This document shows positions 5,018-35,076 of a stretch of 44,260 nt of DNA, piece by piece. The DNA comes from a virus. The stretch lies in the IMG/VR virus record IMGVR_UViG_3300045988_065940; one strand, 5' to 3'. The notes beneath the pieces were generated by a model, which was not told the origin of the DNA, made no database searches, and was given only the letters and a program-made list of their open reading frames with translations. The number at the start of each line of letters is the position of its first letter. The first letter of the stretch is position 1. The translations under genes and the position numbers were made by a program.

Positions 5018-5498
5018 CCGTTACACCACCCTCTTCTTTAAATTTCTTGTTATTTGACATCATAAATGCCTGCATAAACGCTTTTGCCTTTTCGTCCTGC
5101 CTCTTTTCAACCACCTGTTTCTTGCGCGTTTCATCGTTCCTGCTAAACAGCTCATAAGGCTGATTTGCATACGGCGTAGGCTTAGTGCCTTTCTTTGCAA
5201 ACGCTCGCAATATAGGAGCAACGTCAATCAATGCTTCATAAAAATAAGCTCCCTGTAACCACGCATCTTGATTTTTTAAATCCTGTTTTATCTGCGCTGC
5301 ACGGCGGTAATATTTAACTAAATCGCAATCTTGCTCCCAATATTGCTCATAGGTCATACCTATAGACAGGTAATACGGAAAAAGCTCATAAAACTTATCT
5401 GTGTAAGCAAAACGGGGGATGGGGCTTCGTTCACCTCCATCCCCCACGTTTATGGAAGAATGGCCGCTTACCAGCCAGCCTTCCAGCTCAGGTTTCCC
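5010..5498 (-). CDS. gpT-like extension of the tail assembly chaperone, reached by -1 frameshift from 5468..5809 (GT fusion about 265 aa)
   Basis: The -1 frame opens exactly at the GGGAAAC heptamer (a TGA lies immediately upstream in that frame). It runs through the 145-aa ORF 5010..5447, which has no convincing RBS of its own. It sits immediately upstream of the tape measure. Confidence 0.7.
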   Translation of the reverse strand, partial: GKPELEGWLVSGHSSINVGDGGERSPIPRFAYTDKFYELFPYYLSIGMTYEQYWEQDCDLVKYYRRAAQIKQDLKNQDAWLQGAYFYEALIDVAPILRAFAKKGTKPTPYANQPYELFSRNDETRKKQVVEKRQDEKAKAFMQAFMMSNNKKFKEEGGVTDG

Positions 5499-5809
5499 TC
5501 ATCGTTCTCCTGCTCGGGTTCGTCAAGCAGCGCCATAAGCGGCTCGTTGTACATCTCCACAAGTGCGCCTATAAGCTCGTCCTTGTGGTTCAGCTTTGCA
5601 TAAATTGCGTCAATCACATCACGCTTAACAAAACGATGATGCGCAAGAAACGCACCCGCAAAAAGTGCGGGAAGAAGCGTCATAGGTTTACGCTCCATGT
5701 CAGCAGCCACAAAGCCGTTTTTCTCCATGAGCTCGATTGTCTTTCGGGTAAATTCCAGTGTATATGTAACGCCGGAAACAGGATCGTTAATAGTAAGCTG
5801 TTTTGCCAT
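5468..5809 (-). CDS. Tail assembly chaperone (gpG-like)
   Basis: 113-aa acidic-tailed ORF between the major tail protein and the tape measure, with an AAGGAGG RBS. It contains the slippery site near its 3' end. Confidence 0.8.
   Translation of the reverse strand: MAKQLTINDPVSGVTYTLEFTRKTIELMEKNGFVAADMERKPMTLLPALFAGAFLAHHRFVKRDVIDAIYAKLNHKDELIGALVEMYNEPLMALLDEPEQENDEGNLSWKAGW
5492..5498 (-). promoter_or_regulatory. -1 programmed ribosomal frameshift slippery heptamer G GGA AAC
   Basis: Minus-strand sequence GAG GGA AAC CTG is in the zero frame (X XXY YYZ pattern), about 24 nt before the G stop codon. Confidence 0.7.
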
Positions 5810-5840
5810 GATAAATCCTCCTTATCAATTTGGCTTGTAA

Positions 5841-6272
5841 TCAGGTATCAGAAAAAGCAATAGGCGTGGACGGAGCAATGGTAATGGTCATACCCACGAC
5901 TTCGTTTACACCGCCGCCGACGGGATAAACAGAAAGCTCGCCGTCAAAGCTAAACTTGCCGTTAGAACCGTCTGGGGTAACAGTGCCGGAAACCTCCGTG
6001 CCGCCAAACCATACCGCATAACTGGCTTTCTTACCTTCAAGAGCCTTGAGCGTCTTGAAAGTGGTCATGTCGTAGTTTGCGGAGAACGACAGGCCATCAA
6101 GAGACTGAATGCCTGCAATATAGGTCTGCATGTTGTCACTCAGAGTAGTGGTTTCGAGCATTTCGGGCTCGCCGCCGAGATCGGGGAACTCTTTGATATC
6201 AACAAGCTTCGACCAGGTATCGCCTGTGTCACCTTTCTTCATCAGAAAGACTTTATATGTACTTATCGCCAT
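5841..6272 (-). CDS. Major tail (tube) protein, TP901-1/phi13-like
   Basis: 143-aa ORF with an AGGAGG RBS. The N-terminal pattern ...LVDIKEFPDLGGEPEMLETTTLSD... is typical of this family, and it sits just before the chaperones. Confidence 0.8.
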   Translation of the reverse strand: MAISTYKVFLMKKGDTGDTWSKLVDIKEFPDLGGEPEMLETTTLSDNMQTYIAGIQSLDGLSFSANYDMTTFKTLKALEGKKASYAVWFGGTEVSGTVTPDGSNGKFSFDGELSVYPVGGGVNEVVGMTITIAPSTPIAFSDT

Positions 6273-6275
6273 GAT

Positions 6276-6674
6276 TTACCTCCTATAAAGATTGGTACCG
6301 TCCGTTTCTGCCTTGTATCGGGCAACGAGCCGGTAAATTGTCGCATTTTCCATATTTGGAACGGGCGAAAGTGATATTCGCCTAAAATTCTTTGAATACA
6401 TCAAATTATCGATGAACGTTATGATCTCGCGGCAAGCCGCTTTTTTACCAACGCTTTTGTTGGAATAAACGTTCACCTCATACATCAGCGTCGAAAACTC
6501 AACACTACCGCTGTCCATGTGCGCCTGTGTCGTGTAATTGTCCTGCTCGACAATGCTCACATAAGGGAAATCAGGCGGAGCGTTTATATATTCGCCGCTA
6601 ACGATAATGCCGGAGAATTTGTTTCTAAGCGCTTTGGCTATCGGCGTGTATATCTGATTTTCAATGTCGATCAT
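6276..6674 (-). CDS. Tail completion/terminator-like neck protein
   Basis: 132-aa ORF immediately upstream of the major tail gene. The call is by gene order. Confidence 0.5.
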   Translation of the reverse strand: MIDIENQIYTPIAKALRNKFSGIIVSGEYINAPPDFPYVSIVEQDNYTTQAHMDSGSVEFSTLMYEVNVYSNKSVGKKAACREIITFIDNLMYSKNFRRISLSPVPNMENATIYRLVARYKAETDGTNLYRR

Positions 6675-7192
6675 TTAAACACTTCCTTTGCCAAAGCAGT
6701 TAAGCTTGCTTCCAATTCCTTTACCGTTTCATACATCGGCATATTTGCCGGATTGCCTTGCGTAATAACAACGGTGCTGCCGTCGGACTTTTCTCTGACG
6801 ATACCGTTAGAGCCGGGTTCACCGTAATAGCCCCATGATGATTGCTTGCCGTGACCATCGCCGTACTCGCCGCGAGCCATACCCAGCTCACCCGCTTGCG
6901 GATGATTGTCAGGATAAGTAACGCCTGTGCCGAACTCTATAAACAGCGTTGCCGTGCCCGTAGCGACTATTGCCATAGTGTTTCTGTCTCGTTCTTCGAT
7001 CTTCACCACAACATCATTCGTGCCGTCATAGATCGCAGTGCCGAACTTAGCGCTCGCCGCGTTGTAACCCATTTTAGCCAAACGCCTCAGAAACTCGTTT
7101 GAGCGCTCTTTGAGCCACACGTTGTATTCGTTCACGCTTTTTGTCAGCTCCGCAATACCGGCATTAGACAGCGGTACAACGACCTTTTTCAC
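6671..7192 (-). CDS. HK97 gp10-like head-tail joining protein
   Basis: 173-aa ORF with an FIEFGTG-type motif, located in the connector block. GTG start with an AGGTGA RBS. Confidence 0.65.
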   Translation of the reverse strand: MKKVVVPLSNAGIAELTKSVNEYNVWLKERSNEFLRRLAKMGYNAASAKFGTAIYDGTNDVVVKIEERDRNTMAIVATGTATLFIEFGTGVTYPDNHPQAGELGMARGEYGDGHGKQSSWGYYGEPGSNGIVREKSDGSTVVITQGNPANMPMYETVKELEASLTALAKEVFK

Positions 7193-7563
7193 GACACATT
7201 CACCTTTTGAATTGCATACGCAATGGCATTAAGCGATTTTGCAACGCGTTTTACAACGTAGTCATAAAGTGGAGTGCCGTCCTCGCTGTATTCAGGCAGC
7301 TTATCAACAAACAAAACCGAGTTTTCGTCAATCGGACAAGTCAGGTCGTCAGTAACGATCACCTTGTCATAACCCGCGAAATTGCCGAACTGTTCTATCT
7401 GTGCCGTGCCTGTAGCCGACGAAACATTAGCTCTTAACTTAACGGCGGGTTTGTAAATCAACCTTGAGCCACCGGTTTCGTTGCCGTATTCATCCTCAAT
7501 GATTTCCTTGCGGTCATAGAGCTGATACCAAAACGCCATTTTGTTTCGCTCTAATATTTTCAT
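7189..7563 (-). CDS. Head closure protein (SPP1 gp16-like position)
   Basis: 124-aa ORF with a GGAGGTGA RBS and an ATGA overlap with the upstream gene. The call is by gene order. Confidence 0.5.
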   Translation of the reverse strand: MKILERNKMAFWYQLYDRKEIIEDEYGNETGGSRLIYKPAVKLRANVSSATGTAQIEQFGNFAGYDKVIVTDDLTCPIDENSVLFVDKLPEYSEDGTPLYDYVVKRVAKSLNAIAYAIQKVNVS

Positions 7564-9537: not shown

Positions 9538-9749
9538 GATGATTACCTCCTGCGTTTAACAAGGCTGTTCACTCAGCGCTATTTTCTGTTTTTGGTGGGG
9601 TTGTCTCCCCTCTGCGATTTAGGTCTTCCCTGACCATTAACGCCTCTCGGCGATTGATTGTTTTTTGCTGCTGCCTTTCTCATACCGCGCACAACGGTGA
9701 GCTTTCATGAACACTCCGCAGAGCTCAGGGGCAACAGGAAGGAAAAGAG

Positions 9750-11455: not shown

Positions 11456-13105
11456 CTAACAAGGCCGCTTAAACACTTCTACTTTAGCGCCGTTTAAGCT
11501 CTGAGCGAATTCCGCAAACATAGCCATTCCGTCAGGTACATCGTCGTGCTTGTTTTTACCAGCTACGGTGTACGAGCAAAGCATATCCATCATCCGACCG
11601 TAGTCCGAGTTTCGCTTATATTTGCTTTCGTCCAAAAACAAGCAGTGCTCTTTGACCCACGCTGAATTTACAATGATTTTTGTTTCCTTATTCGCCGTTG
11701 TAAATTTCGTTGTAATGTTGGTAATGCCGCCAAGTCTTTTAACCTCGCCTTGAATTTTCTCCGCCACACGTCGACCGGCCGAGTTGCTTTCAAAACGACA
11801 CATATTGACCTTGTCTCGCACAAGAATATCCGCAAGGCGAATATCTACAGTGTCAGGCAAACCGTTATCGCAGATACAATCGCCGATATAATAATCCTGC
11901 CCATACACATAGCCAACAGGCAAAAACGCATAGTCAGCGCCTTTATCCTTAGTATCACATACGCCGATAACAGCGTCCGGCTCCTGCGTGGGCAGTTCAA
12001 AGAAACGCCGCAGCTCATCAGAATGATAAATAAGTCCTTCCCTCTCTATCGGTTGGTTCATGTACAGCGCTTTCCAGCTGACAGAGTCCATAATGTCCCG
12101 CTGATCACGATAAAACTTTGTAGTAAACCCTACGCCGTAATCATAATCAAAATTGCTCTCGTCGTTCTCGTTCATAGCGGGAAAGCGAATGAATTTCGCG
12201 CGAGGGTTATTCTCATACTCCCGTTCCAAGCGGCCTATAACATCATGTACGCTCCACCGAGTAGCGATATGAAGCTCTTTGCATTTATCGCCGATCTTAC
12301 GCTGCCTCAAGTCAGTGGTATACGTCTCCCACAGCTTGTCAAGCCGCTCCTTAGAGAGTGCAACTTCAATACCCGACACCAAGTCATCACAGTAAAGCAA
12401 ATTCGCAGCGCGGTACAAACCGGCGTTTCCTGTGCCTATAGAGGTAAACTCCAGCGTCTCAAAACGCTGACACTTATCAAGATCGATGCGGCAATCCTTA
12501 GCGTTTGTGTTGCTGACCTGAACGGCGGGAAATACGTCATGCCAAAGATATTCGCCCTGCGCGTCGAACAGCCTCAAACACTCATCATACACGCCGCGTA
12601 CAAACGAGTTGGAGTGACTGCCGGTAAGGTTCGGATGATTCGGATCGCGCCCGGCTATCCACGTAAGCAGGAAGATTGCAAGCGTGGTTTTGCCGACGCC
12701 GGGGGGTAAGCTCACGGCCAGTAGGTCGAGCTCATCGTCACCGCAAAGCGCCTGTAAAGCGTCAACCACAGGCTTCAGCTGCTTCTTTCGCGGCTGATAA
12801 AAGCGCTTATCCGCTTGCCTGTCAAGCTCCATATACGTCAAATAGCTGTCGAAATCGTGCGGTGCTTCAAACAGCAGGCACTTACGCCACTGCTCATAAA
12901 ACGACGCTTTATCTGCGCTCACACGCAGCTGCGCAGCGCACTTTGCCTTTAGCGCCTTGTTAGCAGCGTGAGCCGCTGCAAAATCCTCAGTTTCCCATGC
13001 ACGGCAAAGCGAGAAAAAATCCCCGTAAGCTCCCTTATCATCAGGTTTCTTATCAATCGCGGCATTTATAGAGCTCGCAAGCTTTTCGTAATTCACTCTA
13101 AGCAC
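11456..13105 (-). CDS. terL: Terminase large subunit
   Basis: 549 aa with Walker A PPGVGKTT, followed by a nuclease-type C-terminal half. It is followed by the portal gene. Confidence 0.95.
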   Translation of the reverse strand: MLRVNYEKLASSINAAIDKKPDDKGAYGDFFSLCRAWETEDFAAAHAANKALKAKCAAQLRVSADKASFYEQWRKCLLFEAPHDFDSYLTYMELDRQADKRFYQPRKKQLKPVVDALQALCGDDELDLLAVSLPPGVGKTTLAIFLLTWIAGRDPNHPNLTGSHSNSFVRGVYDECLRLFDAQGEYLWHDVFPAVQVSNTNAKDCRIDLDKCQRFETLEFTSIGTGNAGLYRAANLLYCDDLVSGIEVALSKERLDKLWETYTTDLRQRKIGDKCKELHIATRWSVHDVIGRLEREYENNPRAKFIRFPAMNENDESNFDYDYGVGFTTKFYRDQRDIMDSVSWKALYMNQPIEREGLIYHSDELRRFFELPTQEPDAVIGVCDTKDKGADYAFLPVGYVYGQDYYIGDCICDNGLPDTVDIRLADILVRDKVNMCRFESNSAGRRVAEKIQGEVKRLGGITNITTKFTTANKETKIIVNSAWVKEHCLFLDESKYKRNSDYGRMMDMLCSYTVAGKNKHDDVPDGMAMFAEFAQSLNGAKVEVFKRPC

Positions 13106-13464
13106 CCCAATTCTTGATACACTTTAAATATCTTCGGGAATTGAATAGCTATCCAGTCAACCATTTCTTCGTTCTTAGCCCATGATTGATCTGACGCAGC
13201 AGCATTCCACTGTAAGCCACTTTCGTTCAAGAATGCATGGATTATCTCGTGACGCAAAGTGCAAGCCTCCGAGCTCTTACGCACTTCCTCCCTTTCGTCT
13301 TTCCAATCCTCAACCGTAGCCAAATCAAGAATGTAAATCTTGCGATCACCGGCGCAGCATAACCCGCCGTAATGCATCCTTTCCATATATTCATTTTCGC
13401 CCGAACCTACCCGATAAACAGCGTATTTCGAGCCCAAAATATCGACCTTACGAATTAATTTCAT
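13093..13464 (-). CDS. HExxH (zinc-metallopeptidase-motif) protein, translationally coupled to terL
   Basis: 123-aa ORF with an HEIIH motif and a GGAGG RBS 5 nt before the ATG at 13464. Its 3' end overlaps the terL start by 13 nt. Confidence 0.6.
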   Translation of the reverse strand: MKLIRKVDILGSKYAVYRVGSGENEYMERMHYGGLCCAGDRKIYILDLATVEDWKDEREEVRKSSEACTLRHEIIHAFLNESGLQWNAAASDQSWAKNEEMVDWIAIQFPKIFKVYQELGCLE

Positions 13465-13477
13465 AAACGCCTCCACT

Positions 13478-13542
13478 AAACGAAAAGAGGCTACCCCTTT
13501 CGAGATAGCCCCTTAGCTGTCACCCTTGCCCTTGCAAGAGCC
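13478..13542 (-). terminator. Structured element B: intrinsic terminator plus conserved upstream hairpin (paralog of 9750..9835)
   Basis: The minus strand reads GGCTCTTGCAAGGGCAAGGGTGACAGCTAAGGGGCTATCTCGAAAGGGGTAGCCTCTTTTCGTTT. The U-tract ends 3 nt before the GGAGG RBS (13 nt before the ATG) of the HExxH gene. Confidence 0.6.
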
Positions 13543-13546
13543 TACT

Positions 13547-13636
13547 TTATAAAATTCTCGGTATCACATACGCTAACAGTAGCGCGATACATATTATCAC
13601 CAGCATATAACCGATGAGATTGAAAAAATATTTCAT
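13547..13636 (-). CDS. Possible 29-aa hydrophobic peptide (MKYFFNLIGYMLVIICIALLLAYVIPRIL)
   Basis: Short ORF with an AAAGGATG RBS between the recombinase and element B. It is too short to be in the track, and coding status is unproven. Confidence 0.25.
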   Translation of the reverse strand: MKYFFNLIGYMLVIICIALLLAYVIPRIL

Positions 13637-13680
13637 TGCTTATTCATCCTTTAAGATTGCTTCGCGCTTATACCTTTCTT

Positions 13681-14280
13681 TCATGCGTTGCTCCCATTCT
13701 TGCGGGGGATACCCATTTCGTCTTCATACTCCCACATTCTACGGTAAAAAGTATTCCGACTAACACACAGCCGTTTAATAGCATGCGCGGTGGTGATCTC
13801 ATTCTTATACCACGACGCATGAACGTCTTTCAAAAGCCCCTCATCAATAGCAATAGGCTTTCTGCCTTTATACTTCCCAGCTGCTTTTGCCGCCGCAATC
13901 CCTTCCGCTTGCCTTTGTAAAGTCTGATCACGTTCAAGCTGTGCCATAGCGCCGAACACCGTCAACATAAATTGACCCTGCGGTGTTTCTGTGTCAATAT
14001 TCTCTTTCTGCGAAACAAAAGCTACCTTCTTGCTCTTCAACTGCTCAATCAAGCTCAGCAAATCTTTCGTGCTTCTCGCAAATCGGCTGATGCTCTCAAC
14101 AATAACAACATCGCCCTCACGCACATAGTCCAGCATAGCTTCCAGTTGAGGACGGCCAGCGCGGCTTTTCCCGCTCGCCTTTTCAATATAAATTTTTTCA
14201 ACGCCGAGTTCCTTCATCAAAATCTCTTGGCGAATAGTGTTCTGCTCCTCTGTCGATACACGAACATACCCAACTTTCAT
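13681..14280 (-). CDS. Small serine recombinase (resolvase/invertase type)
   Basis: 199 aa. The N-terminus MKVGYVRVSTEEQNTIRQ carries the catalytic Ser context. It has resolvase-like core motifs (VVVESISRFARS, GAMAQLERD) and a C-terminal HTH. Confidence 0.9.
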   Translation of the reverse strand: MKVGYVRVSTEEQNTIRQEILMKELGVEKIYIEKASGKSRAGRPQLEAMLDYVREGDVVIVESISRFARSTKDLLSLIEQLKSKKVAFVSQKENIDTETPQGQFMLTVFGAMAQLERDQTLQRQAEGIAAAKAAGKYKGRKPIAIDEGLLKDVHASWYKNEITTAHAIKRLCVSRNTFYRRMWEYEDEMGIPRKNGSNA

Positions 14281-14313
14281 TATGCCCTATCTCCTTTGCG
14301 TTTTGTCTATTAC

Positions 14314-14342
14314 ACAATACCATATGCAACGTTATATGTCAA
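14314..14342 (-). promoter_or_regulatory. Near-consensus sigma-A/sigma-70 promoter for the recombinase gene
   Basis: Minus strand has TTGACA (14342..14337), a 17-nt spacer and TATTGT (14319..14314) with an upstream TG (extended -10). It lies about 35 nt before the recombinase ATG. Confidence 0.6.
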
Positions 14343-14600
14343 TACTTTTTGTGCCCAAAATTTCATAAATAAATCTCTTTTTTGTTTTTTTGCGATTTTT
14401 GAAATAGCGTGTAAGGCAAACTGACCTTTTTAATTTTTTCAGTATTCGCAGACGTAACCCCAGCCCCATTGCGCGTTTCATTTCCCCCTCCCCCGGCTCT
14501 GCCGCCGTGCCCCAATTGGGTATGATTATATGGGCATCGTGCACAAATACCCGCACACATTATTGTGTATATTTTATGGGTAAAATGTGTTGCAAAATAC

Positions 14601-14629
14601 TTGACATGTATTTAAATGGGCATTATAAT
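14601..14629 (+). promoter_or_regulatory. Consensus sigma-A/sigma-70 promoter of the plus-strand cassette
   Basis: TTGACA (14601-14606), an exactly 17-nt spacer and TATAAT (14624-14629). It is followed by a GC-rich leader of about 115 nt with hairpin potential. Confidence 0.75.
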
Positions 14630-14750
14630 AAGCACGTAAACAAAAAAGCGCACCCGAAGCCGTAGGAAGCAAACCGGGAGCGCACCGCCAAGGAGAGCGG
14701 CAAATAAATTATAAGGCCGTTCCTGCGAATAATCAAGGAGGAGTTTTACA

Positions 14751-15023
14751 ATGTCAGAAAATCGTGAATATTGCAAGAGAATTGCCGAAGAGCTTGAAGA
14801 ATACGCTGCTGGGAAAATGGTAGACGACGACGGGAACGAGCTTAGCTTGTATGATTATTTGGGCGATATGCTCGACTATGAATTTACTATTGACAGTCAG
14901 AAAGAGTACAAGGCCGCTAAAATTTGGATCACTTTGGGAGGCCCTAATGTGTGGATCGATACGGCGGAAAGAGCGGTAAGATTGGCGTGGGGTACAGATC
15001 GTGAAGAATATCCGCTTGACTAG
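14751..15023 (+). CDS. Hypothetical acidic 90-aa protein (cassette ORF A)
   Basis: Strong AAGGAGGAG RBS. By my count about 24 D/E versus about 11 K/R. No family recognised. Confidence 0.65.
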   Translation: MSENREYCKRIAEELEEYAAGKMVDDDGNELSLYDYLGDMLDYEFTIDSQKEYKAAKIWITLGGPNVWIDTAERAVRLAWGTDREEYPLD

Positions 15024-15089
15024 GATGTATGCGACGAGATCGACGACATAATGCAAGATATTTATAAGTGTTAAAAGGGGGATTATAAA

Positions 15090-15314
15090 ATGAGAAAATA
15101 CACACAAAAGGAATTGCGCCAGCTTGTGCGGCTGGGCGTAGCTGAGGATTACACGAATAAGCCGAGCGATTATATTTACACGCTTAACAGGCTCGACAAA
15201 GTGGGCTATTCTACAGGCATTTATGGTATTAACGGCGGACTTGTGCAGGACACGGAAACCGGCGCATTATATGCCATTATCGGGCGTTGCTCTAATCTGT
15301 TTATCTTGTTTTAA
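15090..15314 (+). CDS. Hypothetical 74-aa protein (cassette ORF B)
   Basis: AAGGGGGA RBS. Same strand and tight spacing with ORF A. Confidence 0.6.
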   Translation: MRKYTQKELRQLVRLGVAEDYTNKPSDYIYTLNRLDKVGYSTGIYGINGGLVQDTETGALYAIIGRCSNLFILF

Positions 15315-15326
15315 GGGGGGGATATT

Positions 15327-15509
15327 ATGAAAACAACAGGTCATTATTATAAATCTTTGAAAGCGTGGATAAATGCGGGCGGGAATAAGTACATTGTAAA
15401 TTGCCCTTGTATCCATGTGTCCGGGAGCGTTGCGGGAATGCGTCGGGATTTTTGGGGCTATAAATGCGATGTTGTCCGGGTTGGACAATGGATATATAAA
15501 GCAAATTGA
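15327..15509 (+). CDS. Hypothetical 60-aa protein (cassette ORF C)
   Basis: AAGGGGGGA RBS 5 nt upstream. It starts 12 nt after the ORF B stop. Confidence 0.5.
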   Translation: MKTTGHYYKSLKAWINAGGNKYIVNCPCIHVSGSVAGMRRDFWGYKCDVVRVGQWIYKAN

Positions 15510-15539
15510 TTGACAGTTTGCACACAAAAATAGTACAAT
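15510..15539 (+). promoter_or_regulatory. Second near-consensus promoter inside the cassette
   Basis: TTGACA (15510-15515), an 18-nt spacer and TACAAT (15534-15539), upstream of ORF D. Confidence 0.55.
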
Positions 15540-15596
15540 GGTAACACAAACACAAATTCAAGCGAACAAGGCCGCAAGCCTGGAAGGGAGCACAAA

Positions 15597-15878
15597 ATGA
15601 AAGAATTGAATCCTATAGGATATTGGTGGAATGCGCAGCCGTCTAACGATATGCCTATTTATAACATTGACGGCGTTTTGTATTGCGCTGACGGCTGGAA
15701 TGGTGAGGCATATACCCATTCTTTCCGGGTCCTAAACGCCTACGATTTAGACACTGACCACCCGCAGCCGGTGACATTGCGTCTCGTCTATGTCTTTCAA
15801 GCCGAAGGGATTGATCCAGACACAATAGACGAGATGTCAGACGAGTGGGACCGCATTATAGCAATTGCAGATTTTTAG
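15597..15878 (+). CDS. Hypothetical acidic 93-aa protein (cassette ORF D)
   Basis: GGAAGGGAG RBS. Asp/Glu-rich with few basic residues. No family recognised. Confidence 0.6.
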   Translation: MKELNPIGYWWNAQPSNDMPIYNIDGVLYCADGWNGEAYTHSFRVLNAYDLDTDHPQPVTLRLVYVFQAEGIDPDTIDEMSDEWDRIIAIADF

Positions 15879-15913
15879 TAGAATGATAAAGCCGACAATG
15901 AAAGGAAAAAACA

Positions 15914-15985
15914 ATGTATCTAATATTAACTATAATCTTTCTCCCGATATTAATTTTAATCGAATGTGTAAAATTAAATAAATGA
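15914..15985 (+). CDS. Possible 23-aa hydrophobic peptide (MYLILTIIFLPILILIECVKLNK)
   Basis: GAAAGGAAAAA RBS in an AT-rich patch. Its stop lies 6 nt before the terminator stem. Coding status is unproven. Confidence 0.3.
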   Translation: MYLILTIIFLPILILIECVKLNK

Positions 15986-15991
15986 TTCATA

Positions 15992-16024
15992 CCGCCTGGA
16001 ACAAATTCCAGGCGGTTTTCTTTT
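15992..16024 (+). terminator. Intrinsic terminator of the plus-strand cassette
   Basis: Perfect 10-bp stem CCGCCTGGAA/TTCCAGGCGG with loop CAAA, followed by TTTTCTTTT. Confidence 0.8.
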
Positions 16025-16223
16025 GCCCTTAGCGTTTGCAGCATTACAGCACGTTCAAGCGGTGCGCGCTTAGCCAGTTTGCGTTATATCCCGCTCAAAT
16101 CGTTTTTGAACGGGTTTTTATACTTCATTGTTAAAACAACACTATGGTGCAGCAAATCCGCTTACACAGCGTTGTAGCAGCCTTTAACGCGAAATGGCCA
16201 TTAAGGCAGCACACCACAAACGC

Positions 16224-16271
16224 AAAAACCGCCAAATCCTATATTTTGAGGATCAGGCGGTTTTCTTTTTT
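16224..16271. terminator. Bidirectional intrinsic terminator (backs up the cassette and stops terS read-through)
   Basis: AAAAACCGCC-AA-ATCCT...AGGAT-CA-GGCGGTTTTCTTTTTT. A-run and T-run flank the hairpin, so it can act on both strands. Confidence 0.6.
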
Positions 16272-16335
16272 CGGTTTTCGTCTGCGTCTCCGGCCAAAAG
16301 CTGCCAGAGCGGGAGTTTGTCCTGGCGGCGGTCTG

Positions 16336-16480
16336 ATAGTCGCTCGATAGTCGCTGACGATTCAGCGATAGTCGTTGGCTTTTTCCCAATAGCCGAGTAA
16401 GAGTTGTTCGGCTTCGCCGCCCGGCTGTATCATAGTCGTGAGCCCGGCATAGTCGCTCAGGAATCTACTTCATAGTCGCT
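16336..16480 (+). repeat. Array of six same-orientation ATAGTCG(C/T)(T/G) repeats at and beyond the terS 3' end
   Basis: Copies start at 16336, 16347, 16368, 16432, 16449 and 16472, with a degenerate copy at 16388. The first two spacings are 11 and 21 bp. The last copy is inside terS and the fifth abuts its stop codon. Confidence 0.85.
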
Positions 16481-17071
16481 AGCTGACGCGCCGATCACGT
16501 CCTCAAGATACTTTTTCTCCAAAGTCTCAGCCGGTATCTGTTCACCAAACTGCTGGTTAGGCGTTACAACGACCTCCTGCTTGTCCTGATATCCCATATT
16601 ATTCTTCATAAGGAAAATTCCTGCTACGGGATTTATCTTGCCGTTTTGCATGTAATTTTCCATTTGAGCGGTCAGAATTTGATACGCTTTTTTGAGTGCG
16701 TCCCTACTTTCGGCGGCTACAAAGTCGCTTTGAATGCCGTTTATCCACTTCCACAAAGTTCTTCTATCAATGCCAAAAGCTAATGCCAACCCAGCAACAG
16801 AGGGTTTCATATCGTCATCAGCGCAGGTTTGGAAGTAGAGAGTAACACGTTCGAGGACGTTTTCAGGTTTTTTCATGTCGACCGATGGCCAATTCCACAT
16901 CTTGAGGTTGTGTTCGAGATATTTGCGGTTATCGCCGGGTTCGGCTTGCACTGTGCTGTCAGGACGTTTGTAACCGCCTGCACCTTTAGGGTGGCCGCGT
17001 CCGCGCTTGGGCGTTATTTCGGTCGTTGTTGTTTCGGTTGAAGTTTTGGGTTTAGATTTAGATTCTGCCAT
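16457..17071 (-). CDS. terS: Terminase small subunit
   Basis: 204 aa from the ATG at 17071 (GAAGGTGA RBS). It has a basic N-terminus and an HTH-like segment (...KPSVAGLALAFGIDRRTLWKWI...). The motif ...FLMKNNMGYQDKQE is typical of Gram-positive phage TerS. Confidence 0.8.
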   Translation of the reverse strand: MAESKSKPKTSTETTTTEITPKRGRGHPKGAGGYKRPDSTVQAEPGDNRKYLEHNLKMWNWPSVDMKKPENVLERVTLYFQTCADDDMKPSVAGLALAFGIDRRTLWKWINGIQSDFVAAESRDALKKAYQILTAQMENYMQNGKINPVAGIFLMKNNMGYQDKQEVVVTPNQQFGEQIPAETLEKKYLEDVIGASASDYEVDS

Positions 17072-17072
17072 G

Positions 17073-17294
17073 TTAGTTATCACCTTCTGTTGTAGAATTA
17101 TTGGTTTTGTGAGATTCGTGGAACGTCGGAACAGGAGAAACATCTCGACAAGATGGGCACTTAACAAATGCTAATTGTTCGAGGCCGAACGCAATTACTT
17201 CAACATCTGCATAAGGGCTGTATTGAAATACGCAGCCACAACGAGAACATTCTTTCGTAATTTCGTTGTTTTTCCCAGGTTTTAAAATTTTCAT
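17073..17294 (-). CDS. Zinc-ribbon protein (73 aa)
   Basis: CSRCGC...CPSC motifs and an AAAGGAGC RBS, immediately upstream of terS. Confidence 0.5.
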   Translation of the reverse strand: MKILKPGKNNEITKECSRCGCVFQYSPYADVEVIAFGLEQLAFVKCPSCRDVSPVPTFHESHKTNNSTTEGDN

Positions 17295-31217: not shown

Positions 31218-31234
31218 TTTAAACTGTGTTTAAA
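31218..31234. promoter_or_regulatory. Operator palindrome O-a: TTTAAAC-TGT-GTTTAAA
   Basis: A 17-bp palindrome with perfect 7-bp arms that abuts the -10 of the early promoter. A second copy lies at 31281..31297. Confidence 0.6.
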
Positions 31235-31262
31235 TAATATATCAGCTGAGTTTAAATGTCAA
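31234..31262 (-). promoter_or_regulatory. Early (lytic, PR-like) promoter
   Basis: Minus strand has TTGACA (31262..31257), a 17-nt spacer and TATTAT (31239..31234). A GTTTAAA half-site (31250-31256) lies within the spacer, adjacent to the -35. Confidence 0.7.
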
Positions 31263-31280
31263 GAGAAATTTTCAATATTT

Positions 31281-31297
31281 TTTAAACACAGTTTAAA
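31281..31297. promoter_or_regulatory. Operator palindrome O-b: TTTAAAC-ACA-GTTTAAA
   Basis: Exact reverse complement of O-a. It lies just upstream of a candidate repressor promoter (TTGATT-17-TATTCT). Confidence 0.6.
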
Positions 31298-33353: not shown

Positions 33354-33914
33354 TTGACCGTGCAATCGACTTATGAAATTCCCGATTTGACTGTGGTTTT
33401 CGCCAAAATCCGCAAAGGCAAGGACGCATCGGGGCTAACCAATCAGGAAATCGCCGACAAGTCCGGCATCGCGTACAACACCGTGTGCAATATAACCGCC
33501 GGTACTGCAAAGCAGGTTTCGTTCCACAGCGTCGCCGCCATATGCGTTGTTCTCGGCCTGTCGCTCGATGAAACGTTGGGTTTGCGCGACACCGATACTA
33601 ACGACTATATCCGTGAGCTTGAGATTGAAAACGCCTGCGCTAAAAATGACGTTGAGCACCACAAGCGCATGAACGCCGTTTACAGGCCGCTGATCTTCTG
33701 CCTTGTCGGTGTATGCGCAATTCTGCTGTGCGCAACCATCGGATATGTAATATTTGATATACAGCTTAAAAACATCGGTCTGTTCCGCTCCGGCGGCTTA
33801 ACTTTGCTGGCCGTGTTCCTGGCTATCGTGGTGCTTGCTGCCGTCGTCCTGATCGTCTTTGCAGTGAAAACCGTAATCCACGATGCTAAAACAGCAAAAA
33901 GCCCACAGGATTAA
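33354..33914 (+). CDS. Membrane-anchored XRE-family HTH protein
   Basis: N-terminal HTH (...LTNQEIADKSGIAYNTVCNITAG...) followed by two predicted TM helices (PLIFCLVGVCAILLCATIGYVIF and LTLLAVFLAIVVLAAVVLIVFAV). TTG/GTG start. Confidence 0.7.
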   Translation: MTVQSTYEIPDLTVVFAKIRKGKDASGLTNQEIADKSGIAYNTVCNITAGTAKQVSFHSVAAICVVLGLSLDETLGLRDTDTNDYIRELEIENACAKNDVEHHKRMNAVYRPLIFCLVGVCAILLCATIGYVIFDIQLKNIGLFRSGGLTLLAVFLAIVVLAAVVLIVFAVKTVIHDAKTAKSPQD

Positions 33915-33978
33915 TTTTGTGAGCATTATTCGCTATAAAATTATTTTCGGCGAATATCTAAGGGGGGCAAAGCGAATA

Positions 33979-35076
33979 ATGAAATGTAAAAAATGCAAAG
34001 CCGATATACCGGATGAACTTCATCCCGTGTACTGCTGCTACTGCGGCGAGAAGCTTCAGCGCGAGCGAAAGAAGAAAGACGAGATCAAAATACCCACGCC
34101 GCGCAAGCGTGGGCAGAAGTGGTATGTTGATCTTCGGCGCGAGGGCGTGATGGTGATCGAGGCCACCGAGGCCGAGGCGAGGGCAAAGGCGCTGGCAATT
34201 CGCACGGGAGTTGTCGCCGCCGAGAAAAAGCGCCCCCCACTCACGCTGCGGCAGGCAATAGATAATTATATCAACGATCGAGATAACGCCCTTTCGCCTT
34301 CCACCATTCGCGGCTACTACACGATCCAGCGCAATGCGTTTGCTGATGTAATGGATGAAGATATCCACGCCGTGCGCAACTGGCAAGCCGTTGTTAACGA
34401 AGAAGCTGGGCGCGTCGCGGCGAAAACAGTCAAAAATGAATGGCGGCTGACTAAATCGGTTCTGAAGCAAAACGGTGTTGCTTTTGATGTTACATCGCTG
34501 CCGCAAGTAGTACACGACGAGCTCCCGTGGCTGAACTACGATCAGATAAAAATATTCCTTGCCGCTGTGCGCGGTGCACCATGCGAGCTGGGGGCGCTGT
34601 TCGCGCTTCATAGCTTGCGCCGTTCCGAGTTGTTAGCGTTGACGCCTGATAAAATAAAAGATGGGAAAATATTAGTTCACGGAAGCGCAGTATTGAATAA
34701 GGATAATAAGCTTATTCAGAAGCGGGAAAATAAAAATACTCCATCTCGCCGAGAAATTGAAATTATGATACCGCGCCTTGAGGAACTTCTTGCAGAGAAC
34801 ACTACGCCAGTTGGTACGCCGTACATTCGTTTCAATCCTAATACTCTACGCGCTCAGATAAATCGGATCTGCGAACAAAGCGAGTTGCCGCTGGTTGGCG
34901 TTCACGGTCTACGGCGCAGCTTTGCATCGCTGGCGTATCATCTCGGCTGGGCGGAGCAGCAGACAATGAAAGTCGGTGGTTGGGCGGACTATAAGACTGT
35001 GCACGATATCTATGTTAAGCTTGCCGCGGCCGATGAAAAGCGTGATATAGATCGTATGAAAGCGTTCTTTAATTGA
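33979..35076 (+). CDS. int: Tyrosine integrase with N-terminal zinc ribbon
   Basis: The ATG at 33979 has an AAGGGGGG RBS. Contains CKKC...CCYC at the N-terminus, HGLRRSF (HxxR) and ...VHDIYV (catalytic Tyr region). It is adjacent to attP. Confidence 0.9.
   Translation: MKCKKCKADIPDELHPVYCCYCGEKLQRERKKKDEIKIPTPRKRGQKWYVDLRREGVMVIEATEAEARAKALAIRTGVVAAEKKRPPLTLRQAIDNYINDRDNALSPSTIRGYYTIQRNAFADVMDEDIHAVRNWQAVVNEEAGRVAAKTVKNEWRLTKSVLKQNGVAFDVTSLPQVVHDELPWLNYDQIKIFLAAVRGAPCELGALFALHSLRRSELLALTPDKIKDGKILVHGSAVLNKDNKLIQKRENKNTPSRREIEIMIPRLEELLAENTTPVGTPYIRFNPNTLRAQINRICEQSELPLVGVHGLRRSFASLAYHLGWAEQQTMKVGGWADYKTVHDIYVKLAAADEKRDIDRMKAFFN

Follow-up and report, generated by a model that had tools for sequence, protein, structure and literature searches.

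We have analysed the interval between the terminase genes terS and terL in a stretch of viral DNA of 44,260 nucleotides (nt; IMG/VR virus record IMGVR_UViG_3300045988_065940), which as a whole is referred to here as the window. The two genes lie 3.35 kb apart; between them are a gene for a small serine recombinase and, divergent from it, five small plus-strand genes (A90, B74, C60, D93 and E23), termed cargo below; both the spacing and the gene content agree with a preliminary description made from the sequence. We read this region as a lineage-wide accessory-gene hotspot of temperate, headful-type siphoviruses of gut Oscillospiraceae/Ruminococcus, which would combine an expression platform with cargo of a mostly counter-defence nature. 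Taken as a whole this reading is probable, with some reserve; the description of a hotspot with a conserved platform is by itself very likely, and the chances of an anti-defence role for the cargo of this particular phage fall just short of even. As judged from the relatives, the hotspot is long-standing and fast-changing, the gap, the promoter with its leader and, for the most part, the recombinase being ancestral to the lineage.

The terS-terL gap is a conserved site with variable content

Searches with megablast returned no match to the region among GenBank phages or PLSDB plasmids. Relatives were found only in metagenomic collections, more than 80 of them in IMG/VR at 60–99% terL identity, and related terL genes are present in assemblies of Oscillospiraceae, Ruminococcus and Dorea. 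Both terminase genes are present in 65 of the relative loci, and in all 65 they are separated by a gap of 2780–7052 bp. The preliminary description had taken terS and terL to be normally adjacent and the block to have been inserted between them; with adjacency found in 0 of 65 relatives this view has to be abandoned, the gap being ancestral.

Gene order, leader and recombinase were counted in the 60 distinct sequences among these relatives. The order is conserved: terL is followed by a gene for an HExxH protein, by variable minus-strand genes and usually by the recombinase gene, and then come the plus-strand cargo and terS. Within this frame the content is highly variable, as the gap open reading frames (ORFs) of the 60 relatives and the window fall into 115 protein clusters, a number that includes terS, terL fragments, the HExxH protein and some spurious antisense ORFs. 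Comparison at the DNA level evidences sharp, recurring breakpoints (at about 13668, 14635–14753, 15085, 15330 and 15900 in window coordinates), and the genes are exchanged singly and not as one cassette. Conserved core genes with a packaging function, which had been named as the finding that would speak against an accessory block, are not what the gap contains; its cargo turns over between relatives. In the window the cargo genes are the sole plus-strand coding block outside the lysogeny module, as had been noted before. They are co-directional, encode products of 23–93 amino acids (aa) and are spaced by 12–87 nt, and their carrier is the phage genome itself.

In the most distant relatives (loci L059, L060, L062 and L074, terL identity 60–72%) the genes of clusters c4, c32, c49 and c22 share the strand of terS and terL, and these loci lack the conserved leader described below. 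The antisense orientation of the cargo is thus specific to a sub-lineage.

Promoters and terminators

The perfect promoter upstream of A90 (P1), the second promoter upstream of D93 (P2) and the promoter of the recombinase gene, all proposed in the preliminary description, were recovered with the consensus matches given in Table 1. P1 is the only perfect sigma-70-type promoter in the 44 kb of the window, where 0.21 matches with at most one mismatch are expected by chance. Its −35 and −10 hexamers stay at consensus in the relatives while the spacer diverges, which is the signature of a working promoter. The hexamers of the recombinase promoter are also kept in diverged relatives with a recombinase of the same (Sin) type. 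The P2 region is a second, smaller expression slot: P2 is kept in four relatives (L002, L014, L016 and L071), and in L002 and L014 it lies with its short leader directly upstream of E23 and a terminator, forming a compact unit. The position between the P2 leader and E23 is taken by D93 in the window and by other genes in L016 and L071.

Three intrinsic terminators enclose these units, each with a folding energy of about −20 kcal/mol and with z-scores between −3.9 and −5.6. All of those described earlier proved to be stable, with the correction that the one nearest to terS, which coincides with inverted repeat I12, acts in both directions. On the late strand two minus-strand terminators (16264–16225 and 13514–13485) stand between terS and the HExxH-terL pair, so that late transcription must either read through them, by antitermination, or restart. 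Such transcription would cross the cargo operon in antisense, which may provide a simple late switch-off of the cargo.

A structured leader follows P1

Conservation extends from about position 14635 up to the first start codon, even in relatives with different genes on either side. Using nhmmer, P1 and this leader of about 110 nt were detected in 44 of the 60 relatives, in a single orientation throughout, and the window carries one copy. From its A-rich 5' end the leader proceeds through a first hairpin (hairpin 1), a decoy Shine-Dalgarno (SD) sequence (CAAGGAGG), an anti-SD sequence and the true SD. In hairpin 1 (GCGCNCCCG, variable loop, CGGGNGCGC) 95.5% of the cells of the alignment are paired and compensatory changes occur in 3 of the 8 pairs, a covariation score matched by 0 of 500 shuffles. 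In the minimum-energy folds of the individual sequences the partner of the anti-SD is the decoy SD in roughly one half of the variants and the true SD in the other. In L029 and L035 the pseudo-SD, anti-SD and true SD are all altered in concert, and in L052 the second hairpin is rebuilt from a different sequence. About 55 nt separate the decoy CAAGGAG(G) from the predicted start of transcription, and no ATG, GTG or TTG is found at initiation distance from it. No Rfam family accounts for the leader: a permissive scan of 13400–16500 gave only Hrs12, on a terminator and at 30.8 bits against a threshold of 70.

The nearest documented mechanism would be that of STAB-SD, the 5' mRNA stabiliser of Bacillus thuringiensis cry3A (PMC4113751). 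By analogy, the two would share an SD-like motif within the 5' untranslated region that has no start codon, a Firmicutes context and a position upstream of a highly expressed gene. Unlike STAB-SD, the decoy pairs here with an anti-SD that can pair instead with the true SD, and it is preceded by a covarying hairpin. The alternative pairing suggests, as far as the predicted folds go, an added translational gate.

One relative (L023) has a second, diverged copy of the leader at 9626–9743, located 3' of terL and ahead of small ribbon-helix-helix-like ORFs, with the same architecture and a shared CCGTAGGAAG loop motif. The position of this copy suggests that the leader is a portable expression module which is used at more than one variable site.

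Cargo genes and their homologues

A coding model based on dicodons, for which 347 long ORFs of this phage group served as training set and which was used for the ORF census of the gaps, supports A90, B74 and D93 and not C60, which scores poorly (−5.0), or E23. The coding status of the latter two is rescued by their substitution patterns in relatives. C60, a basic protein of 60 aa, differs from its homologue in L087 by 19 synonymous and 7 non-synonymous changes, with 19 of the 26 at third codon positions. E23, a hydrophobic peptide of 23 residues (grand average of hydropathy, GRAVY, 1.86) encoded by the last gene of the operon, has accumulated 15 synonymous and 2 non-synonymous substitutions over five variants and, on these counts, is under strong purifying selection. 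The peptide is reminiscent of small membrane peptides or of type I toxins; an antisense RNA was not identified.

The products of A and D are acidic, as had been stated (isoelectric points, pI, of 4.2 and 4.05, net charge of each about −13). The 90-aa form of A, also described before, is a truncated allele: a TGG to TAG change at 15021–15023 (W91*) replaces a tryptophan that is present in all homologues and removes the conserved C-terminal helix, and the 16-residue conserved tail (DVCDEIDDIMQDIYKC) can still be read in frame up to position 15074. Since the identical 90-aa product occurs on four contigs, this is a real circulating allele and not an assembly error. We have collected 271 homologues of A, nearly all of 107 aa and none with a family name. 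The AlphaFold model of a full-length homologue (P0002) is confident, with a predicted local distance difference test (pLDDT) score of 92.9, and it has no fold neighbour in the PDB (best E = 0.32, template modelling score at most 0.33); in BFVD only uncharacterised phage proteins match it. The proposal that the acidic proteins are DNA mimics, made from acidity alone, finds no backing in this model without a solved structural neighbour.

B74 is the commonest and most widely shared of the cargo genes, with 306 homologues at 81–96% identity. It is found in about 25 loci in differing contexts, behind at least four different upstream genes, and its limits are set only by its own SD sequence and that of the next gene. 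No attC- or att-like elements were found at the junctions of B74 or of the cassette, which consist of ribosome-binding site (RBS) sequences. A 95%-identical B74 is also present in three loci (L099–L101, at about 5150–7500) with a different backbone, characterised by a P22-type portal and a Terminase_6 terL. There too its neighbours are the terminase genes, and the operon of small genes to which it belongs also encodes a DUF2958 protein, on which a literature search gave nothing useful; the divergent gene encodes a 69-aa HTH_26 protein, the promoter is operator-rich and has repeated CACCACC/GGTGGT motifs, and the leader is not shared. The preliminary description had asked for the same cassette in unrelated backbones or for relatives with clean, adjacent junctions: of the former, one gene, B74, is present in this P22-like backbone, and no relative of the latter kind was found.

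D93 has 25 homologues, some of them fused to an N-terminal extension, and genes of its family also occur in arrays of small ORFs on contigs of 79–155 kb. The protein is probably beta-rich; with a pLDDT of 70.6 its model is weak, and Foldseek gave no PDB match for it. A Kelch-like assignment was considered and rejected, as the profile matches designed SAKe propeller proteins through summed sub-threshold stretches only and Foldseek came back empty.

None of A–D matches an entry in Pfam, PHROGs, PADLOC or NCBIfam or a PDB sequence, in line with the initial failure to recognise a family for any of the five ORFs, and most cargo families of the relatives are likewise without a known family. The exception that bears on function is cluster c30, the final gene of the same operon in L046, L047 and L055, which matches Pfam AcrIC5 with 73 bits at a cutoff of 27 bits (1.9e-20) and, at 2.4e-10, the solved structure of AcrIC5, 7yhr. 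No homologue of a validated anti-CRISPR (Acr) protein was detected among A–D in Pfam or the PDB, and no PADLOC defence family among the tested cargo. A second candidate, the c5 cargo family as AcrIC9-like, was dropped when its single-sequence PDB match (E = 0.055) vanished with the family profile. The cargo of L055 also includes a Bro-N/ANT antirepressor, and FtsK-like proteins are found among the cargo of relatives.

The divergent serine recombinase and its promoter

The gene divergent from the cargo encodes a recombinase of the resolvase/invertase type. Its PF00239 match extends over residues 3–137 and its phrog_125 match over residues 1–186, with no separate Pfam helix-turn-helix (HTH) match, and among PDB entries the protein matches Gin invertase (4m6f, 1e-26) and γδ resolvase best, the latter aligned up to residue 180. 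Having a catalytic domain and a total length within the range of about 180–210 aa, it is a small serine recombinase, in which the catalytic motifs YVRVS..Q and DRxxR are intact; its score is below every NCBIfam equivalog cutoff.

A serine recombinase occupies the divergent position in 47 of the 60 relatives (48 of 61 gaps with the window included). These amount to 32 distinct variants of several subfamilies, all with the catalytic serine and arginine motifs, namely small Sin/Gin-like proteins of 190–206 aa and large-serine-recombinase-like (LSR-like) proteins of 251–383 aa with PF07508. In some of the relatives the position is held instead by a small HTH protein (c8 or HTH_26). The conserved catalytic residues suggest that the enzyme still recombines DNA, whatever else it may do. 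In L022, L040 and related loci, with minus-strand genes of clusters c2 and c11, an LSR-like ORF of 272–383 aa is followed by an ORF of 122 aa that ends in GQHEPILKEE, as other recombinase alleles do, which suggests split or frameshifted large serine recombinase genes.

Among close relatives the exchanged unit covers 13669–14634; it starts a little below the stop codon of the recombinase gene and ends a little beyond the −10 hexamer of P1. The core promoter thus moves together with the recombinase, while the cargo keeps its leader. In classes of the LSR-like type, the −10 is bracketed by a perfect inverted repeat of 6–8 bp whose arms vary with the subfamily (TTTACGG...CCGTAAA; ACATTTAC...GTAAATGT; TTACGGT...ACCGTAA; TTTACGT...ACGTAAA). 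Arms of at least 7 bp are present in 9 of 24 distinct promoters, compared with 4.6% of shuffles, and among the LSR-like classes whose promoter was mapped only L046 is without the dyad; none of the classes lacking a recombinase has it. In the window P1 lies within an imperfect 30-bp palindrome (14611–14640) centred on the −10. A further motif, TTTGGGCA or (A/T)ATGGGCAT, is found at 14350–14358, 14529–14537 and 14615–14623, so that one copy, inverted, is beside the recombinase promoter, one is intergenic and one falls within the P1 spacer; both copies close to a promoter are kept in all diverged Sin-type relatives, and the motif is a candidate operator.

The arrangement recalls that of Tn3/γδ at res, where the small serine recombinase gene is also divergent from a neighbouring unit, the candidate binding dyad or palindrome lying here too over a promoter in the intergenic region. 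It differs in that no three-subsite res is recognisable near the recombinase and no second site in the window, in that there is no transposase, and in that the dyad is clear for the LSR-like alleles only and not for the Sin type of the window. By analogy with res, it is possible, if rather doubtful, that the recombinase binds at P1 and tempers the promoter as a regulator. An improbable further reading takes the recombinase and the P1 dyad or palindrome to be a single-site, lox-like exchange point. A crossover at the −10 between co-resident relatives would then swap leader and genes onto other recombinase-promoter modules, the breakpoint at about 14635, at the right dyad arm, would be the footprint of site-specific and not of homologous exchange, and the same reaction, beside pac, could also cyclise headful genomes. 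If true, this would make the locus a phage serine-recombinase analogue of the integron platform.

How the locus may work

In the scheme that we favour, the fixed platform consists of P1, the leader of about 110 nt, the second slot (P2, one gene position, E23 and the terminator) and terminators on both sides, and the variable cargo is made up of small genes that are traded singly among related and unrelated phages at junctions formed by RBS sequences only. Host RNA polymerase would transcribe the cargo strongly, with no need for phage late factors, and the leader would stabilise the mRNA in a STAB-SD-like manner or gate its translation. The cargo proteins would mostly counter host defences or competitors, as the AcrIC5-family gene of the relatives would do. 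The part of the recombinase would most likely be to bind P1 and damp it, like Tn3/γδ resolvase at res, with a function similar to that of a repressor encoded by an anti-CRISPR-associated (aca) gene. For the cargo of the window itself the anti-defence argument is positional: the earlier suggestion of such a role gains indirect support from the AcrIC5-family gene in the same slot of relatives, the window having none of its own.

Several observations weigh against this scheme. The cargo of the window matches no known anti-defence family or solved fold, and a known Acr family is found in only 3 of the 60 relatives; the antirepressors and FtsK-like proteins among the cargo of relatives indicate that the slot is not solely devoted to anti-defence. 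The truncation of A means that part of the cargo may be decaying. As for the recombinase, it is missing in 13 of the 60 relatives, the Sin-type promoter of the window has only the imperfect palindrome and not a clear dyad, and the association between promoter and recombinase could reflect, at least in part, nothing more than physical linkage.

Alternative explanations

The strongest alternative, which we nevertheless hold to be unlikely, is lysogenic conversion or prophage defence, in which moron products protect the lysogen through superinfection exclusion or abortive infection. A constitutive-looking host-type promoter between flanking terminators is the classic moron layout, and the variable minus-strand half of the gap in relatives is rich in membrane- and lipoprotein-like genes, such as a tRNA_anti-like OB protein with a transmembrane segment, zinc-ribbon transmembrane proteins and a protein with a lipoprotein signal. 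To these may be added the two tiny hydrophobic ORFs of the window, E23 and the 29-codon TM29 located 3' of the recombinase gene, and the Bro/ANT antirepressor of L055. The plus-strand cargo, however, is small, soluble and acidic, PADLOC families match none of the cargo tested, and relatives carry the AcrIC5-family gene. The anti-defence and lysogenic-conversion readings can coexist, one for each half of the hotspot.

Genome processing is a still weaker contender, and we give it little credence. Here the recombinase, acting at a single lox-like site near pac, would cyclise headful genomes with terminal redundancy once they have been injected, or resolve multimers, with the cargo merely residing in a tolerant gap. 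Cre/loxP of bacteriophage P1 is the precedent, and a relationship between lox and pac is described in the literature on that phage. A catalytically intact recombinase stands beside terS in 47 of the 60 relatives despite complete allele replacement, each genome has one dyad or palindrome site, and a candidate pac array is situated about 1.8 kb away. Headful packaging is itself suggested by the family matches of the portal (SPP1-type) and of terS (P22 gp3-type). The 13 relatives without a recombinase are difficult to accommodate, however, and resolvase-type enzymes usually need accessory sites and supercoiling. Moreover, the dyad overlaps the −10 of the promoter, which fits regulation at least equally well, and the pac site is a candidate, with the size of the terminal redundancy and the direction of packaging being assumptions.

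A recently acquired, discrete mobile cassette of recombinase and cargo, inserted between once-adjacent terS and terL, is largely refuted, and we consider it most improbable. The block has its own promoters, terminators on both flanks and a recombinase gene within it, and B74 recurs in an unrelated backbone; but terS and terL are apart in every relative down to 60% terL identity, flanks, leader and layout are conserved across the lineage, exchange concerns single genes and not the whole block, terminal repeats or att-like junctions were not found, and the base composition is that of the surroundings (GC 0.41–0.46 within the block, 0.40–0.53 in the flanks). Of the autonomous moron or mobile insertion proposed in the preliminary description there remain the own promoters and terminators, the orientation antisense to the late genes, the gene turnover and the presence of B74 elsewhere; the insertion itself does not.

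An invertible switch, with the recombinase flipping the promoter or the cargo block on and off, had also been put forward and is no more credible than the cassette: although Gin invertase is the closest solved relative of the recombinase, the cargo opposes the surrounding genes and is co-directional with the terminase genes in L059, L060, L062 and L074, and weak inverted repeats are present (14434–14460/16273–16299 and 14438–14451/14723–14736), these repeats are 70–86% matches with cores of 8–9 nt, which is the chance level in 4 kb, none of the inverted-repeat pairs found window-wide falls in this neighbourhood, and 44 of 44 leader copies have the same orientation relative to the flanks.

Comparison with known systems

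Temperate phages, for example the Mu-like Pseudomonas JBD phages, can carry acr-aca loci within their structural or late region. The hotspot resembles these loci in being a short operon of small, fast-turnover genes without a known family, with its own strong promoter, at a fixed site between conserved morphogenesis or packaging genes and with cargo that differs from one relative to the next; a gene for a DNA-binding protein is coupled to the promoter, and a member of the AcrIC5 family is among the cargo of relatives. It differs from them in that there is no HTH aca gene in the operon of the window, the coupled gene being that of a divergent, catalytically intact serine recombinase, in that the operon is antisense to the late genes and has a conserved structured leader, and in that the window has no Acr homologue. 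Work on a clostridial acr locus has been presented (bioRxiv 10.1101/2023.05.22.541795).

With the hotspots of P2 and P4 (PMC9122126) and the accessory regions of phages (bioRxiv 10.1101/2023.04.06.535777) the locus shares a fixed position between core genes, variable content and cargo held in common with unrelated elements. The P2/P4 hotspots mostly contain defence systems of several kb, whereas here the units are small single genes; in addition, promoter, RNA leader and recombinase are conserved parts of the locus, and its position splits terS from terL. Morons in the sense of Hendrix and Juhala are similar in having an autonomous promoter and terminator and in standing outside the surrounding operon. 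Unlike morons, the locus is a platform for the exchange of several genes, and since its flanking genes are adjacent in no relative and its composition is not foreign, two of the three defining moron features fail. Integrons, lastly, also combine a fixed promoter, serving exchangeable, mostly promoterless small genes, with a divergent recombinase gene, but their recombinase is the tyrosine recombinase IntI and not a serine recombinase, and the present locus has RBS junctions and no attC-like elements.

Significance

Variable accessory loci are currently the most productive source of new anti-defence proteins, and the one described here is widespread in phages of uncultured gut Clostridia and easily recognised from the terS-terL position and the conserved leader. 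With A, B, C and D it makes no fewer than four uncharacterised families available for testing, of which A has a confidently predicted fold without a solved relative. Two components were least expected, namely the structured leader, which is conserved widely and for which Rfam has no family, and the module of recombinase and promoter, in which the dyad is specific to the subfamily. The promoter-leader unit is a candidate new RNA element and a candidate strong expression module for the Oscillospiraceae, which are hard to engineer; if the recombinase does regulate or recombine at the promoter, this would be a new kind of link between such an enzyme and an accessory operon. For annotation, the locus indicates that a stable separation of terS from terL is possible, with over 3 kb of antisense genes and terminators in between, a matter of relevance both to terminase-based detection of phages and to models of late transcription.

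Feature coordinates and neighbouring genes

Table 1. Features of the terS-terL interval and its borders, in window coordinates.
Feature	Position	Strand	Basis
terL	11456–13105	−	phrog_38, 1e-60
HExxH gene	13093–13476	−	phrog_1233, no Pfam match
Intrinsic terminator closing the recombinase/TM29 unit, just upstream of HExxH-terL	13485–13514	−	−20.9 kcal/mol, z = −4.7
TM29, hydrophobic small ORF of 29 codons, 3' of the recombinase gene	13547–13636	−	ORF list, conservation
Small serine recombinase, 199 aa	13681–14280	−	PF00239, 3e-43; phrog_125 "DNA invertase", 1e-62
Recombinase promoter, TTGACA-17 nt-TG-n-TATTGT	14314–14342	−	10/12 match, extended TG
P1, TTGACA-17-TATAAT	14601–14629	+	12/12 consensus match
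Conserved structured 5' leader, ~110 nt	14635–14750	+	nhmmer, covariation
Leader hairpin 1 (GCGCNCCCG, variable loop, CGGGNGCGC)	~14649–14685	+	covariation
Leader pseudo-SD, CAAGGAG	~14690–14697	+	sequence
Leader anti-SD-like GTTCCT (CCTCC-type)	~14722–14727	+	sequence
True SD, CAAGGAGG	14735–14743	+	sequence
Cargo ORF A90	14751–15023	+	ORF list
Cargo ORF B74	15090–15314	+	ORF list
Cargo ORF C60	15327–15509	+	ORF list
P2, TTGACA-18-TACAAT, with short leader	15510–15596 (promoter 15510–15539)	+	11/12 match
Cargo ORF D93	15597–15878	+	ORF list
Cargo ORF E23	15914–15985	+	ORF list
Intrinsic terminator closing the cargo operon	15991–16016	+	11-bp stem, then T-run; −19.9 kcal/mol, z = −5.6
Bidirectional terminator	16225–16264	both	−19.9 (+) / −23.1 (−) kcal/mol; U-run after each
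Six same-strand ATAGTCG repeats, at and overlapping the terS 3' end	16336–16478	+	repeat count
terS	16457–17167	−	PF16677 GP3_package, 1e-13

At the right border, ATAGTCG occurs 15 times in the window where 4.2 copies are expected, a number reached in 0 of 100 shuffles, and six of the copies fall within 143 bp. The region of this array is kept together with terS in all close relatives, and the array is a candidate pac or terS-binding site and marks the conserved right edge of the hotspot.

At the left border, TM29 is 97–100% identical in close relatives (tblastn), even alongside a different recombinase allele; its substitutions are distributed 8/6/18 over the three codon positions, an excess at the third, its GRAVY is 1.93, and on this pattern it is probably coding. 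A basic small ORF upstream of the recombinase gene (14332–14481, minus strand) was discarded as a gene, its substitutions (5/4/1 by codon position) not being codon-like. The product of the HExxH gene has 127 aa and an HEIIH motif. The gene overlaps the start codon of terL, and in roughly half of the relatives it is conserved immediately upstream of terL. Its true start is likely the ATG at 13464, with its GGAGG RBS, and the protein may be a small metallopeptidase-like part of the packaging operon.

Outside the gap, the separate tyrosine integrase reported in the preliminary description is present in the lysogeny module (33883–35076), but its score is barely above the Pfam cutoff (27.6 against 27.1 bits). 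The lysogeny switch region includes a 23-nt inverted repeat with a 96% match (31218–31297) and the only other near-consensus promoter of the window (31234–31262, minus strand), and together these are probably the immunity operators.

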